32,000 bases of DNA, from positions 840,001-872,000 of the forward strand of contig OY969425.1 of assembly GCA_963699255.1 (NCBI GenBank), read 5' to 3'. The translations under genes were made by a program, and so were the position numbers. This DNA is from an uncultured bacterium. GTDB lineage: Bacteria > Margulisbacteria > WOR-1 > CAVSGV01. Positions 2,664 through 6,899 of this stretch are shown piece after piece (the stretch's first letter is position 1; each line of letters opens with the position of its first letter). The notes below the pieces were generated by a model that saw nothing but the letters and a program-made list of their open reading frames with translations, was not told where the DNA came from and searched no databases.

Positions 2664-3695
2664 ATGCCATCTAAACCTTTAGATATTGCACTTGTTCTTT
2701 TGTTGTTAAGCGCGTCGTGTTTTGTTATGCCATCATATTCCGCTAACTTCTCCGACCGATTCGCTATTTCTCCTCCGGCGGGATGGGCAGGCGACGACAC
2801 TAACGGGACTCCGCGCACCATCACCGGGGTTCTCCCTTCTGATTTCAAGGAAGATAATGAGGTGGTTACGGGTTTTGGGAGTTATTCCAATAAGGTGATG
2901 TGCCGCGGACAAAACTTGCGCCAGTACCGGGTCAGCATACACCTTAACGGAGATCTTATATCGGGATCCAACATTATTCCGGCGTCGAGTTTGAGATATA
3001 TGCTTACTTACACGAACGGACTCGGAACTATTTCCAACTATCAAAAGTACATCAATTTTTCAACAGCCTGGAACACGGTCTATTTAAGCTTAAGCAATCC
3101 TATCACAATAGAATCACCATTCCCCGAAGATGCATCCGCAGATAGAGAGTTTCAGTTCAAGTACGCGATCCAGGTACCGAACAATCAGGCTCCCGGAACA
3201 TATACAGCTAACATAGAATATTTAGGAGAAGAGATCGGGGGGACAAGCGCTACACGGACAGCTCAAATTTCAGTCACTGTTGGGAACTATTTCCGCCTTT
3301 CCGTGGACAGGGGCACCATCGATTTTGAAAAGATGAAGCCGGGGGATGTAAAAGACAACATGCCGCCTGAAGGCGTTATCGTAACAAGCAACACAAACAC
3401 CGGAAATCCCTGGTACTTAAAGATATCCAATGACAGCCCGCTTAGTTCCGGTCCGTATGTGATCCCGGATTCAAATTTCTCTTGGTACGGTTGGACGGAT
3501 GGAGCAGGCACATGGTACGGCACAGGGAACAATCCGATAACATTCGTGCCCGAGCTTATGTACGCGAGCGGAGCAAATGAGGGTAACAACATGCCGAACG
3601 GCACGAACAATCATTTAAAGTTCAAGCTGGCTATCCCGAAGGGACAGCCGGGCGGCAAGTACCTATCAACAGTTACACTGACACTAACGGAGTAG
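2664..3695 (+). CDS. Secreted two-domain beta-sandwich surface protein; the C-terminal domain is WxL-like and paralogous to 3709-4329
   Basis: It has a signal peptide ending SYSA. The C-terminal domain carries IDFEKMKPG, GNPWYLKIS (a W-x-L motif), NFSWYG and the terminal PGGKYLSTVTLTLTE. The N-terminal domain ends with the same kind of strand (FQFKYAIQVPNNQAPGTYTANIEYL), which indicates an internal duplication. Confidence 0.6.
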   Translation: MPSKPLDIALVLLLLSASCFVMPSYSANFSDRFAISPPAGWAGDDTNGTPRTITGVLPSDFKEDNEVVTGFGSYSNKVMCRGQNLRQYRVSIHLNGDLISGSNIIPASSLRYMLTYTNGLGTISNYQKYINFSTAWNTVYLSLSNPITIESPFPEDASADREFQFKYAIQVPNNQAPGTYTANIEYLGEEIGGTSATRTAQISVTVGNYFRLSVDRGTIDFEKMKPGDVKDNMPPEGVIVTSNTNTGNPWYLKISNDSPLSSGPYVIPDSNFSWYGWTDGAGTWYGTGNNPITFVPELMYASGANEGNNMPNGTNNHLKFKLAIPKGQPGGKYLSTVTLTLTE

Positions 3696-3708
3696 GAAAA
3701 TTAAAAAT

Positions 3709-4329
3709 ATGCAACAAATGAATCTAAGTTTTTGGAACCTGCGAATGAACTTCCCTGCCCGTCCGGCAGGCGGGGCGGTTCCAAAATTGCGAGGAACCGA
3801 GACGTTTAGTCTCAGGTTCCGAGCTCTATTTGTCATTTGGATTTTGTCATTTGTCATTTTGTCCTCCCCTGCTTATTCCGCTCAAGCAACCAGTTCCATC
3901 ACTGTTACTGTTTTAGTTCAAGGCTCTTTTAACTTGATGGTGAACACCGACTCATTTGATTTCGCGCGTCTCGCGCCCGGGCAAACCGGAGAAATGAACA
4001 GGTCCGAAGGGGTGGCGGTTACAGGAACATCCAGCGGCGGAAATCCGTGGTACTTGAAGGTTTCAGCAGTAAAGCCTTTGACATCGGGAAGCAACTCTAT
4101 CCCGAATGAAAATTTCACCTGGTACGGCACAAGCGAAGGGACCGGCAGCTGGCATGGGACAGGAGAAAAAAGCTTTGCCGATCCCGACAACACGGCATAT
4201 GTAAGCTCAGCAGAAGAAGCGGACCAGATCAGCAAGGTCGTTAACAGGTTCAAGTTCAGGCTGCATACTCCCGAAGATACAAAACCCGGAAATTACACAA
4301 CGACCGTAATGTTCACGATGACGGAGTAA
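3709..4329 (+). CDS. Secreted single-domain WxL-like / pilin-like beta-sandwich protein, paralog of the C-terminal domain of 2664-3695
   Basis: FDFARLAPG, GNPWYLKVS, NFTWYG and the terminal PGNYTTTVMFTMTE align with the upstream gene. The signal-peptide core is RFRALFVIWILSFVILSSPAYSA. The start is uncertain: ATG 3709 has an SD, but ATG 3745 and TTG 3787 are in frame and would remove a strongly structured 5' segment. Confidence 0.6.
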   Translation: MQQMNLSFWNLRMNFPARPAGGAVPKLRGTETFSLRFRALFVIWILSFVILSSPAYSAQATSSITVTVLVQGSFNLMVNTDSFDFARLAPGQTGEMNRSEGVAVTGTSSGGNPWYLKVSAVKPLTSGSNSIPNENFTWYGTSEGTGSWHGTGEKSFADPDNTAYVSSAEEADQISKVVNRFKFRLHTPEDTKPGNYTTTVMFTMTE

Positions 4330-4332
4330 ACA

Positions 4333-5211
4333 ATGAAAACCACAAATCACAATAAACAATATACAAACAATATACAAATTCTAAGACACAACAATAAAAA
4401 CACATTCTTTTTGTTTATTCGGTCATTGTTTATTGTTTGTAATTTGTTGCTTGTAATTTGTATCTTTGGATTTACCTCCCCTGCCTTTGCCCTATCGATA
4501 AACATCGATCCGTCAAATATTAACGTATCTATAAAGCCCGGTGAAACAAAGGACGGCGAGATCCTTGTCCAGAACCTTGGGGAAGACAAAATAAAGATAA
4601 AAGCATACACTGAAGACTGGATCTATGCCTCTGACGGTAGCAAGGTTTTCATGAAACCGGGTTCTTCGGTATATTCTTGCTCCTCCTGGATCAAGCTGGA
4701 TCCGGAACAATTCGATCTGGGATCCAAAGAAGACAAAAAAGTAAAATACACCATCACTTCTCCAAGCAACGCTTCCGGAGGACATGTTTCCGTGATCTTT
4801 TTCGAGGCTGTCATAGATAAGTACGAAGGAATTGCCGTGTCTGGAAGGATAGGAACGATCGTTTACCAGGATACCGAAGGAGACATAAAGAGATCCGGAG
4901 AGATAAAGGCGCTTTCAGTCCTGACCTCTGAAGAAGGCAAACCGGTCGTTCTTCAAATTTCCTTTGAAAACAATGGGAATTCGTATATAGCAGCGAAGCC
5001 GGGCATAAAGATAATGGACGGCGGGAAAACCATTATTGAGTCACAGGCAATGAACATAAACACTCTTCCGGGAGACACGAAAATAAGCACCGTAACGATC
5101 AACAAGCCGTTATCAGAAGGCAATTATAAAGCACAGGTCGAGCTGAACTTTGACAACAAAACCCTCAAATCCCAATCAGATTTCACCATCAGAAAATCTA
5201 CCCAAAAATAG
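4333..5211 (+). CDS. Secreted two-domain Ig-like protein resembling DUF916/DUF3324 (CscA-type) proteins or PapD-like periplasmic chaperones
   Basis: The signal peptide ends SPAFA. Domain 1 is LSINIDPSNINVSIKPGETKDGEILVQNLGEDKIKIKAY...SSWIKLDPEQFDLGSKEDKKVKYTITSP...GGHVSVIFF. Domain 2 is VVLQISFENNGNSYI...LPGDTKISTVTINKPLSEGNYKAQVELNF. Both show the pattern of beta-sandwich surface or chaperone domains. Confidence 0.5.
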   Translation: MKTTNHNKQYTNNIQILRHNNKNTFFLFIRSLFIVCNLLLVICIFGFTSPAFALSINIDPSNINVSIKPGETKDGEILVQNLGEDKIKIKAYTEDWIYASDGSKVFMKPGSSVYSCSSWIKLDPEQFDLGSKEDKKVKYTITSPSNASGGHVSVIFFEAVIDKYEGIAVSGRIGTIVYQDTEGDIKRSGEIKALSVLTSEEGKPVVLQISFENNGNSYIAAKPGIKIMDGGKTIIESQAMNINTLPGDTKISTVTINKPLSEGNYKAQVELNFDNKTLKSQSDFTIRKSTQK

Positions 5212-5240
5212 AAATTTTCCACTGTTTTTGACGATAATAT

Positions 5241-5272
5241 AGTATAGGGGGGATGTGGCTATACTTTTTATT
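5241..5272 (+). terminator. Weak intrinsic terminator candidate after 4333-5211
   Basis: AGTATAG (5241-5247) pairs with CTATACT (5259-5265) across an 11-nt loop and is followed by TTTTTATT. The stem is short and AT-rich. Confidence 0.35.
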
Positions 5273-5358
5273 GTAGCAAAGCCAAATTTTTATTGTTTTA
5301 TTAATGAAAAACATACAAGAAACCGTCTCAACAACACGATAAAGAGTATAGAGGAATT

Positions 5359-6855
5359 ATGCGTAAAGTAATATATATACTTATAATATCTGCTTTTGTA
5401 CTGCTGCAGGCAAACGCTCTTGCATTCGGCGCAAGTCCTTTGACCCTCACGTATGCAGGCGGAACGGGTGCGGGCGCATCTGATTCGAAATTTGCAGAGA
5501 ACACCTGGGATTACAACTATCAATACCATGTTCTGGTCCTTTCCGGCGATGTCCCGCAGGGAAGCCTTTTCTCACAAATACAAGTGGAGGAAAGTGATTA
5601 TAAGACCGGACTGGCGTACGCTCGCATGAACCTTTACGGCAGCACATATACTATCGACCTCGGCGACAATGTTGTGAACTTCTCCGATCTCACATTGAAT
5701 AGTTTGGCATATGAGGGCGCGGGCGTGACCCTGAAACCTTCCGGCAACTTCAACATGACGGTGGTCGGCGGCGCGCGAGGCAACGGATTGTGGGGAGCCG
5801 ATGTCAGGAGAGACACTAGACCGCAGGAAAAATTTACGGGAGTAAAGACCGTCTTCAACCCTGTTGCGGGGCTGGGCCTTTCCGCCACATACCTGACGAC
5901 CCCGGGCGGGGATGATGTCCTGGCTTATGGAGGAGAATACGATTTTGAGGACCTTAAATTCGCCGCTGAGTACGGTTCCGCGATCGAAGGAAAAGCTTTC
6001 AGCGGCCAGATAAAATATCAGGACAACTGGCTGTCTCTCGGGACCATTTACAGGGATGTTGACCCGACCTATGTTATTCCGTTCGATTCCGCCACCTATA
6101 AGGGAATAAAAGGAACTTACTCTTCCGTAGGGATAAGGCCTTCGAACAATCTTTCAATAAATGTACAGAGTGACAGCTACATAGACAGACTGAACGGCTC
6201 CTCCGACGTCCCGATCCTGGACACGAGGGGGGACATGACCTACAATCTTGCGAGCGGAACGAACATTGGATATTCTGGCTGGAGGAATGACAGGGAATCC
6301 TACGACAGAGGCGGCATTACCGAAGGCGAGATGATGTACGTAACCCAGCAATTTTACCTTTTAACAAAGAACGCGATCTACTTCAGGAGCCAGCCGTCGT
6401 GGTTCCAGAGCTTTAATCCATCCGAGGAGTCTTATTCCGAAAATAAGAACATCGCGGGGCTCAACATATCGCTGTTCGACGCTATCCACCTTAACTATGA
6501 GATAGAGAACGCCGAAAAAATATTCAAAAACACCGATATTGAAGTCGATCCCTCGGCCGTATCCGCGAGGATGGACCTTTTTGAGAGCCAGATAATGGGG
6601 AGTCCGTTCTATATCGCGAGTTCGATCAATTACAGAAAAGACATCCCTGATAAAGATGTTTCGGAGGAAGCCACTTCCACTTCCGCCTATTCCGACGTGA
6701 CCATAAAATACAGCCCGGACCCCGACATGAGCTGTTTCATCACCGCCAAGGTCTTCGACATGAGCTCGCCTGATGCGGACAGGACCGCGAGGGAACAGAG
6801 AGATCTGAGCTTTGGCCTTAATTATACCTTCAGCACTAGCTTCTATATGAAATGA
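5359..6855 (+). CDS. Putative outer-membrane beta-barrel protein (498 aa) of unknown family
   Basis: It has SD GAGGA and a signal peptide (ILIISAFVLLQANALAFGA). Amphipathic beta-strands with Y/F/W-rich turns alternate throughout, and the protein ends LSFGLNYTFSTSFYMK, a beta-signal-like but non-canonical terminus. Confidence 0.55.
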   Translation: MRKVIYILIISAFVLLQANALAFGASPLTLTYAGGTGAGASDSKFAENTWDYNYQYHVLVLSGDVPQGSLFSQIQVEESDYKTGLAYARMNLYGSTYTIDLGDNVVNFSDLTLNSLAYEGAGVTLKPSGNFNMTVVGGARGNGLWGADVRRDTRPQEKFTGVKTVFNPVAGLGLSATYLTTPGGDDVLAYGGEYDFEDLKFAAEYGSAIEGKAFSGQIKYQDNWLSLGTIYRDVDPTYVIPFDSATYKGIKGTYSSVGIRPSNNLSINVQSDSYIDRLNGSSDVPILDTRGDMTYNLASGTNIGYSGWRNDRESYDRGGITEGEMMYVTQQFYLLTKNAIYFRSQPSWFQSFNPSEESYSENKNIAGLNISLFDAIHLNYEIENAEKIFKNTDIEVDPSAVSARMDLFESQIMGSPFYIASSINYRKDIPDKDVSEEATSTSAYSDVTIKYSPDPDMSCFITAKVFDMSSPDADRTAREQRDLSFGLNYTFSTSFYMK

Positions 6856-6870
6856 AACAAATAGGCACAA

Positions 6871-6899
6871 TTGACACATCCGCCTCAAGGTTTTAGAAT
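6871..6899 (+). promoter_or_regulatory. Sigma-70 promoter for pth-mfd
   Basis: TTGACA (6871-6876), a 17-nt spacer, then TAGAAT (6894-6899). SD GAGGTGA lies at 6906-6912. Confidence 0.65.

Follow-up and report, generated by a model that had tools for sequence, protein, structure and literature searches.

In a 32,000-nucleotide stretch of DNA from an uncultured bacterium (GTDB lineage Bacteria; Margulisbacteria; WOR-1; CAVSGV01; GenBank assembly GCA_963699255.1, contig OY969425.1, positions 840,001 to 872,000 of the forward strand; hereafter the window), four neighbouring genes, here called C, D, E and F, probably encode a fibre assembled by donor-strand exchange with a soluble WxLIP-like chaperone and an usher-like pore, reduced here to its barrel, in an operon shared with a mannanase and carbohydrate-binding proteins. 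All evidence is computational, and the working of the system is deduced from fold, gene order and sequence pattern. A first-pass annotation of the same DNA had offered two readings of these genes, a WxL/DUF916-like surface cluster and a chaperone-usher-like fibre. Both hold in substance and have now converged: cryo-electron microscopy and biochemistry showed that WxL proteins of Enterococcus faecalis polymerise by donor-strand exchange, and the DUF916/DUF3324 protein ElrE of this species was experimentally shown to be a membrane-anchored donor-strand chaperone (October 2026 preprint, bioRxiv 10.64898/2026.10.17.759780). With WxL proteins as pilins and DUF916/DUF3324 proteins as their chaperone, the two readings describe one kind of machine.

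C (positions 2664-3695; 343 amino acids, aa), D (3709-4329; 206 aa), E (4333-5211; 292 aa) and F (5359-6855; 498 aa) lie on the + strand, bearing out the four co-directional genes that had been annotated there, and follow two further + strand genes, A and B. Spacing is 3-15 nt throughout A-E, with 13 nt between C and D and 3 nt between D and E, while 147 nt separate E from F. Judging by this spacing, the fibre genes appear to be co-transcribed with the GH26-CBM9 mannanase A and the CBM11-like protein B. The C, D, E and F proteins each have a single N-terminal hydrophobic segment resembling a signal peptide, and a scan of all six proteins A-F detected neither an LPxTG motif nor a membrane helix beyond the N-terminal segment.

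The order of these genes is kept in relatives. B, one to three pilin paralogues, E and F follow one another in 15 of 17 Margulisbacteria loci, and the other two reach the contig end before F. Relatives in Candidatus Omnitrophota were reached via the names of cluster members, with a single Omnitrophica protein as the locus query; here the order pilins-E-F was found in 11 of 14 loci, which encode a pilin protein of three domains, frequently a small pilin, E, and then an F of 913-1088 aa with both end domains. One Omnitrophica contig carries GH2-CBM9, GH94 and GH26-like genes, four pilins and E before it ends, and on another a 1024-aa F-like gene starts at the contig end. Because the order is kept elsewhere without B or GH26, pilins-E-F form the core of the module. 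Among the 146 genomes of the phylum, D is present in 38, E in 47 and both in 36; E is also present in 101 of the 301 Omnitrophota genomes that were sampled. It is therefore hardly credible that C to F are four unrelated exported proteins that are neighbours by chance and share no function. The 147-nt gap between E and F, which holds weak promoter-like sites, would suit such an arrangement, but it is already contradicted by a gene order kept across two phyla, by the joint presence of D and E in 36 of 38 genomes and by the tight spacing through A-E.

C consists of two tandem pilin-like domains and D of one. Residues 196-343 of C and 60-206 of D are 39% identical (BLASTP, E = 5e-33), in line with the paralogy first proposed for these two proteins, and the N-terminal half of C resembles this domain less closely (E = 0.001) and corresponds to the first small paralogue of relatives. 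The motifs from which the paralogy had been read, DF..[LM].PG, GNPWYLK[IV]S, NF[ST]WYG and a C-terminal PG.Y..TV..T.TE, are all present. The suggestion that the subunits are WxL-like stands for one motif: GNPWYLKVS of D (4039-4065, + strand) contains a single conserved W-x-L whose W114 is invariant in Margulisbacteria and Omnitrophota relatives, whereas the second Trp motif is W-Y-G instead of the W-x-L of a dual motif, and neither C nor D matched the Pfam WxL model (PF13731) at E <= 1. No Pfam or NCBIfam family was reached at threshold by either protein, the NCBIfam hits being far below it. The 58 close homologues of D are nameless except for one that JGI calls 'spore coat protein U-like'. 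When 1.84 billion representatives were searched with a profile, 221 relatives were returned at E <= 1e-3. Weak Pfam matches among 78 D relatives fell to DUF4402 and NPCBM_assoc (seven each) and to WxL, SCPU and Dr_adhesin (one each). Sequence searches of D and of the wide D family against PDB chains gave nothing significant, a match to a RecA concatemer being a repeat artefact.

D carries an N-terminal extension, SSITVTVLVQGSF (3892-3930, + strand), that conservation and an AlphaFold2 (AF2) model mark as a candidate donor strand. It alternates as I64-V66-V68-V70-G72-F74, with V68 and F74 invariant and V70 and G72 nearly so, and ranks among the most conserved parts of the family. In the monomer model (predicted local distance difference test, pLDDT, 80.8), a well-defined beta-sandwich starts from about residue 74, and SSITVTVLVQGSF is not a strand, is unpacked and has a pLDDT of about 49-66. 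At the other end, the conserved C-terminal strand PGNYTTTVMFTMTE (4285-4326, + strand) runs to the last residue of D, with G194, Y196, T203 and T205 invariant and E206 nearly so. Most aligned relatives terminate at this very residue, and Omnitrophota members add two residues (TL). By analogy with the chaperone-usher and Elr systems, this strand may be the one bound by the chaperone.

The mature N-terminus of C has no alternating donor strand, and in several related operons the last pilin paralogue before E likewise lacks the N-terminal strand, as would be expected of tip subunits. Between the two domains of C, a linker strand, QISVTVGNYF (3264-3293, + strand), aligns with ITVTVLVQGSF of D (BLASTP) and would fill the groove of the N-terminal domain of C intramolecularly. 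We infer that C is a fused distal (tip) subunit and D the polymerising subunit and candidate major pilin. The start of D may lie downstream of 3709, since the first approximately 35 codons of the open reading frame (ORF; 3709-3820) are missing from most homologues, which are about 170 aa long. In the genome's own gene call for D (130 aa) the start is set too far downstream, which cuts off the signal peptide.

Structural comparison of the D model with the PDB (Foldseek) placed the Hyper2 tube 9bab first (4.1e-4) and CsuA/B second (6fq0_B, 9.2e-4), with CfaB, Pyrodictium (archaeal) cannulae, the PapG pilin domain, FimF and FimG among the further matches. The TLP-1 pond fibrils (PDB 9ikj/9ikk) appeared neither in the Foldseek top 50 for D nor in the profile search. 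GH123 beta-sandwich domains follow close behind the pilins, so the fold match is a lead rather than proof.

E is a candidate soluble, periplasmic chaperone and apparently a distant WxLIP (DUF916 + DUF3324) relative without a transmembrane helix. Against Pfam, residues 65-151 matched WxLIP_PGBD (DUF916, PF06030) at 1.1e-3 and residues 255-290 matched WxLIP_HBD (DUF3324, PF11797) at 0.01. Among 28 E homologues, 24 matched DUF916 (best 2.7e-6) and 21 matched DUF3324 (best 3.4e-4), in the correct order, and PapD families were absent from their hits. The DUF916/DUF3324-like pattern first noticed in E is thus supported by ordered matches below threshold, although the spacing quoted for it after PGE was slightly off. 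The homologues also weakly matched ASH, Cep192, HYDIN-type and DUF1573 domains; the title of PDB entry 6fvi calls a CEP192 domain 'ASH / PapD-like'. In a six-frame search of the 146 phylum genomes, PF06030 matched 17 genomes, with two matches over the curated cut-off, and every match whose position was compared with the coordinates of the E family fell inside an E-family gene. In the window's own genome, the E orthologue was the sole match. Hits in the control genomes of Thermotoga maritima and Methanosarcina acetivorans, besides Lactococcus lactis, indicate that DUF916-like domains occur outside Bacillota in cultured organisms.

No hydrophobic segment occurs in E after residue 70, and its Margulisbacteria and Omnitrophota relatives are likewise without a C-terminal membrane helix. 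The end of its first domain forms a strand-loop-strand, GGHVSVIFFE...GRIGTIVYQ (4777-4869, + strand), in which G149, V154, F156, E158, G171, R172 and G174 are at least 90% conserved in the wide family and the loop between is variable; by analogy with the DUF916 hairpin, it is a candidate donor hairpin. A sequence search of the E family against PDB chains gave nothing significant. Comparison with ten E. coli chaperones (hhalign) gave a suggestive 46% over 203 colinear columns covering both domains for the wide E-family alignment and 15% for the narrow one, and one E homologue is labelled 'PapD chaperone' by JGI. Taken by its family matches, E appears closer to the DUF916/DUF3324 protein of Gram-positive WxL pili than to PapD-type chaperones. 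E-like paralogues also stand apart from the main operon in several genomes (e.g. locus L022, 14194-14967, genome G091), contig C38 of genome G141 has six matches, with multi-domain forms of 490-526 aa in tandem, and some homologues of 349-397 aa have a third, C-terminal Ig-like domain (L027, 9234-10424; L033, 1995-3041; L036, 4039-5103).

F was not assigned to any family by sequence (Pfam, NCBIfam), and its 41 homologues are unnamed, one being assigned to Candidatus Margulisiibacteriota by NCBI. Its AF2 model (pLDDT 88.6, predicted TM-score 0.72) is an all-beta barrel whose 26 strands are 9-16 residues long, without an inserted domain. The best 12 Foldseek matches in the PDB are all FimD/PapC ushers (E 1.8e-11 to 2.2e-8, TM 0.31-0.53), among them FimD 3rfz_B (1.8e-11), the PapC pore 2vqi (5.6e-10, TM 0.45) and the FimD pore 3ohn. 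Next in rank, at about 2e-8 to 1e-6, come Deinococcus SlpA, Occ porins, MtrB and LptD; porins start at about 1e-7, and ushers surpass them by about 3-4 orders of magnitude. With 26 modelled strands, a position always adjoining E and extra domains in most relatives, F does not fit a substrate-specific porin (OccD / OprD, chitoporin), which would be a channel of 16-18 strands encoded alone or with uptake genes.

Those extra domains clarify the size of F, which had first been described as a usher far smaller than usual. In most Margulisbacteria relatives outside the window's family, F is 770-883 aa long and has, besides the barrel, a PF13629 domain at the N-terminus and two sandwiches at the C-terminus, again without a plug insert; PF13629 was over its cut-off in four of eight relative F proteins tested, and the sandwiches are of the SdrD_B / CarboxypepD_reg type. 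The first sandwich of long F showed a weak likeness to the usher C-terminal region (hhalign 37%, wide alignment). A relative from the same order has one C-terminal domain left and the window's family none, and the DNA flanking F has no room for lost domains. Decay of F into a pseudogene was considered and rejected, as the short form is kept at 483-526 aa in about 35 of the 41 homologues. Short F is the product of a lineage-specific loss of accessory domains that kept the bare barrel: the fold remains nearest to ushers, and the small size belongs to this lineage, relatives reaching 770-1088 aa.

Several results weigh against reading C-F as a pilus system. All parts stay below the threshold of every pilus family. 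Profile searches for WxL, DUF916, DUF3324, PapD_N, SCPU and Usher gave only the sub-threshold DUF916 and DUF3324 matches on E, which scored 19.5 bits for PF06030 (gathering cut-off 27.3) and 16.2 bits for PF11797 (28.9). In the whole genome, PF00345 (PapD_N) matched nothing, E included, and a six-frame search with PF00577 (Usher) gave no match in F. The single WxL and SCPU matches among the 78 subunit relatives had E-values of 0.0058 and 0.09. On the structural side, the Foldseek E-values of D are modest (about 1e-3 to 4e-4) and nearly equalled by GH123 beta-sandwich domains, and the TM-scores between F and ushers are only 0.45-0.53, in a class of large barrels that cross-match easily. F has 26 strands and no plug domain, whereas ushers have a 24-strand barrel, and in the window it is without the N-terminal and C-terminal domains that classical ushers need for subunit recruitment and handover. 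As their models define them, the Usher, PapD, SCPU and WxL families do not include C-F.

Much of the same evidence bears on whether C-F are a divergent archaic member (Csu / sigma-type, SCPU) of the chaperone-usher family, with the DUF916/DUF3324 likeness reflecting the shared Ig-like fold only. We regard this as improbable. In structure, D has CsuA/B as one of its two best matches, F is nearest FimD and PapC, E is colinear with E. coli chaperones at 46%, and the JGI labels 'spore coat protein U-like' and 'PapD chaperone' for one subunit homologue and one E homologue point the same way. Yet the Usher and PapD_N models are silent on the window genes, SCPU is confined to its one marginal match, the narrow F family reached only 6% for the barrel in hhalign comparison with ten E. 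coli ushers, E homologues repeatedly matched DUF916 and DUF3324 and never PapD_N or PapD_C, and the 26-strand barrel has no plug.

On the donor-strand-exchange reading, C, D, E and F would be exported by Sec. In the periplasm, soluble E would cap the open groove of each subunit, donating a strand from its GGHVSVIFFE...GRIGTIVYQ stretch. C, in which two pilin-like domains are fused and a free N-terminal strand is absent, would start the fibre as its distal tip, and D would polymerise behind it, the ITVTVLVQGSF strand entering the previous subunit's groove and dislodging E. The fibre would leave the cell through the 26-strand barrel of F. As only the barrel is left in F, the pore would be passive or gated in another way, and E and the subunits would drive polymerisation by themselves. 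These roles agree with those first sketched for the 343-aa protein (two-domain tip), the 206-aa protein (pilin), the 292-aa protein (chaperone) and the barrel (small usher), and they fit the Foldseek results for D and F and the Pfam matches of the E family.

The genes upstream of C link the fibre to glycans. A (226-1848, + strand, 540 aa), the first enzyme gene of the tightly packed operon, encodes a secreted enzyme with GH26 and CBM9 domains (Pfam CBM9_1 at 1.7e-16; Glyco_hydro_26 at 29.3 bits, cut-off 20.2) and adjoins the cluster in 9 of the 17 Margulisbacteria loci; a GH26-like gene also stands beside pilin genes in one Omnitrophica locus. B (1864-2658, + strand, 264 aa), a CBM-like exported protein, is a candidate glycan binder with a predicted jelly-roll of the CBM11 / CIA30 / SGBP-B type: in its family, 8 of 15 proteins matched CBM_11 (best 7.9e-5), 8 of 15 CIA30 and 4 of 15 SGBP_B_XBD (best 1.1e-6), and a sequence search against PDB chains gave nothing significant. 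B stands before the pilin genes in each of the 17 Margulisbacteria loci and was not found in the 14 Omnitrophota loci, and is thus specific to Margulisbacteria. A sugar ABC permease with a large insert lies directly upstream of GH26 or B in nine related Margulisbacteria loci, and because its position is kept there it may form one functional unit with the fibre genes. The link of GH26 and the CBM-like protein to the fibre core is lineage-specific and confined to part of the phylum, so the association with glycoside hydrolases that the first-pass annotation had raised is conserved there and not throughout. Given the operon shared with the GH26-CBM9 enzyme and the CBM11-like protein, the fibre probably attaches the cell to mannan-rich polysaccharide or displays binding modules on it.

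The same neighbours could be taken to form a set for glycan capture, in which C, D and E would be monomeric Ig-like or beta-sandwich binders in the periplasm or on the cell surface, B a CBM and F a large substrate-specific channel for manno-oligosaccharides freed by the GH26 enzyme, feeding the neighbouring ABC permease. An operon beginning with GH26-CBM9 and CBM11-like genes, the conserved permease upstream, GH123 beta-sandwich and NPCBM-associated domains scoring near pilins for C and D, OccD, OprD and chitoporin among the F matches at about 1e-7, and an F without a plug or usher accessory domains would all agree with this. We nevertheless consider it unlikely, since the D-E-F core occurs without GH26, B or permease in 8 Margulisbacteria and most Omnitrophota loci, most relatives of F have usher-style end domains that a sugar channel would not need, F matches ushers 3-4 orders of magnitude above porins, and the free N-terminal strand of D, missing in one paralogue per operon, would have no role in a monomeric binder.

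Comparison of the donor-strand-exchange system proposed here with known machines would place it between two of them. It shares with the Elr/WxL system (bioRxiv 10.64898/2026.10.17.759780; PMC10599100; PMC1534035) a putatively incomplete Ig-like domain preceded by an N-terminal alternating strand that ends in Phe, a small subunit plus a larger multi-domain one, and a two-domain helper with DUF916 followed by DUF3324 (weak here) of similar domain sizes. The consensus reported for WxL donor strands is [S/T]-x-[G/A]-x-[V/I]-x-F (bioRxiv 10.64898/2026.10.17.759780); the strand I64-F74 of D fits the alternation up to Phe in a register that is not identical to it. The proposed plant-glycan link of the Csc clusters of Bacillota (PMC10599100; PMC1534035) parallels the GH26 and CBM neighbours found here. 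In contrast to the WxL pilus system, which has been reported only in Bacillota and whose lack of an usher was remarked upon (bioRxiv 10.64898/2026.10.17.759780), the present host is two-membraned and an outer-membrane barrel is part of the module. A C-terminal membrane helix is found on 96.7% of WxL chaperones (same preprint) and not on E, there is no LPxTG anchor subunit here, and C and D fail the Pfam WxL model and have one W-x-L only.

With chaperone-usher systems (Fim/Pap, Csu; PDB 3rfz, 2vqi, 6fq0), the module shares the set of subunits, two-domain periplasmic helper and outer-membrane pore, the best fold matches (CsuA/B and Fim/Pap subunits for D, FimD/PapC for F) and, in most F relatives, the arrangement of N-terminal domain, barrel and two C-terminal sandwiches. 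It differs by its lack of sequence-level matches to the Usher, PapD_N, SCPU and Fimbrial models, by 26 instead of 24 strands and no plug in F, by an N-terminal domain in relatives that is PF13629 and not PapC_N, and by the loss of all accessory domains from F in the window. The predicted structure of ElrE resembles CsuC, CfaA and Caf1M (bioRxiv 10.64898/2026.10.17.759780). The Pam pilus of the Candidate Phyla Radiation (PMC13278184) also belongs to an uncultured lineage; its Ig-like pilins are linked through donor-strand exchange, and its chaperones have predicted structures similar to PapD/FimC. These chaperones are membrane-anchored, however, their hosts are without an outer membrane or pore, and the match here was far under the model cut-off (17 versus 55 bits). 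LptD and MtrB, among the Foldseek matches of F, are also monomeric 26-strand barrels, but they rank below ushers (E about 4e-7 to 1e-6) and have unrelated gene contexts. A full-text literature search found no paper on a chaperone-usher-type system in Margulisbacteria or Omnitrophota, or on one with DUF4402.

If the fibre reading is true, the building of pili by chaperone plus donor-strand exchange would no longer fall into a usher pathway of Proteobacteria on one side and separate single-membrane pathways (WxL/Elr in Bacillota, Pam in CPR) on the other. A soluble WxLIP-like chaperone would be combined with an usher-like pore in no fewer than two uncultured diderm phyla, with 47 of 146 genomes in Margulisbacteria and 101 of 301 sampled genomes in Omnitrophota, and would offer a concrete intermediate for the origin of the usher. 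The barrel-only F would be a natural experiment on the need for usher accessory domains. The tie to a mannanase and a CBM suggests that the fibres serve polysaccharide attachment, an idea long since put forward for the Csc/WxL clusters of lactobacilli. More speculatively, and rather doubtfully at present, the module might represent a third, outer-membrane-equipped branch of donor-strand-exchange pili that is widespread in uncultured diderm phyla and links WxL and chaperone-usher pili, with a pore stripped to its bare barrel, assembly without usher recruitment and handover domains, and perhaps gating of the pore by B.

Such cooperation between B and F is hinted at by a Cys in B that goes along with the loss of the N-terminal domain of F; as this is one evolutionary event, it is no more than a hint. 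B likely starts at the MKK at 1906, and its Cys at 1969-1971 may be a lipidation site. An N-terminal Cys in this region (1957-1974; relatives at loci L030 and L032) was seen only in the order in which F is without its N-terminal domain. B offers no more than a loose parallel to the lipoprotein that plugs LptD.

Outside A-F, the first-pass annotation had placed the cluster inside a mannan-utilisation locus. The permease, the GH26-CBM9 enzyme and the CBM-like protein do lie upstream, but a full locus of this kind was rejected, as the other neighbours in the window (nfnAB-like, galT, an FtsJ+S4 methyltransferase, pth and mfd) are either housekeeping genes or unrelated. A near-consensus promoter-like site (6871-6899; TTGACA, 17 nt, TAGAAT) between the F stop codon and pth, which mfd follows, is the downstream boundary of the operon. 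The source genome comprises 1.77 Mb in one contig and is 95% complete. Its upstream ABC permease has 601 aa (genome positions 838321-840126) and a large extra-membrane insert, and the last 126 bases of its gene are positions 1-126 of the window. In a close relative with a second copy of the locus, GH26 is broken into four ORF pieces (L030, 10058-11646; genome G083, contig C10), which could reflect a pseudogene or an assembly error, and the GH26 copy on contig C9 of the same relative (L031) is intact.

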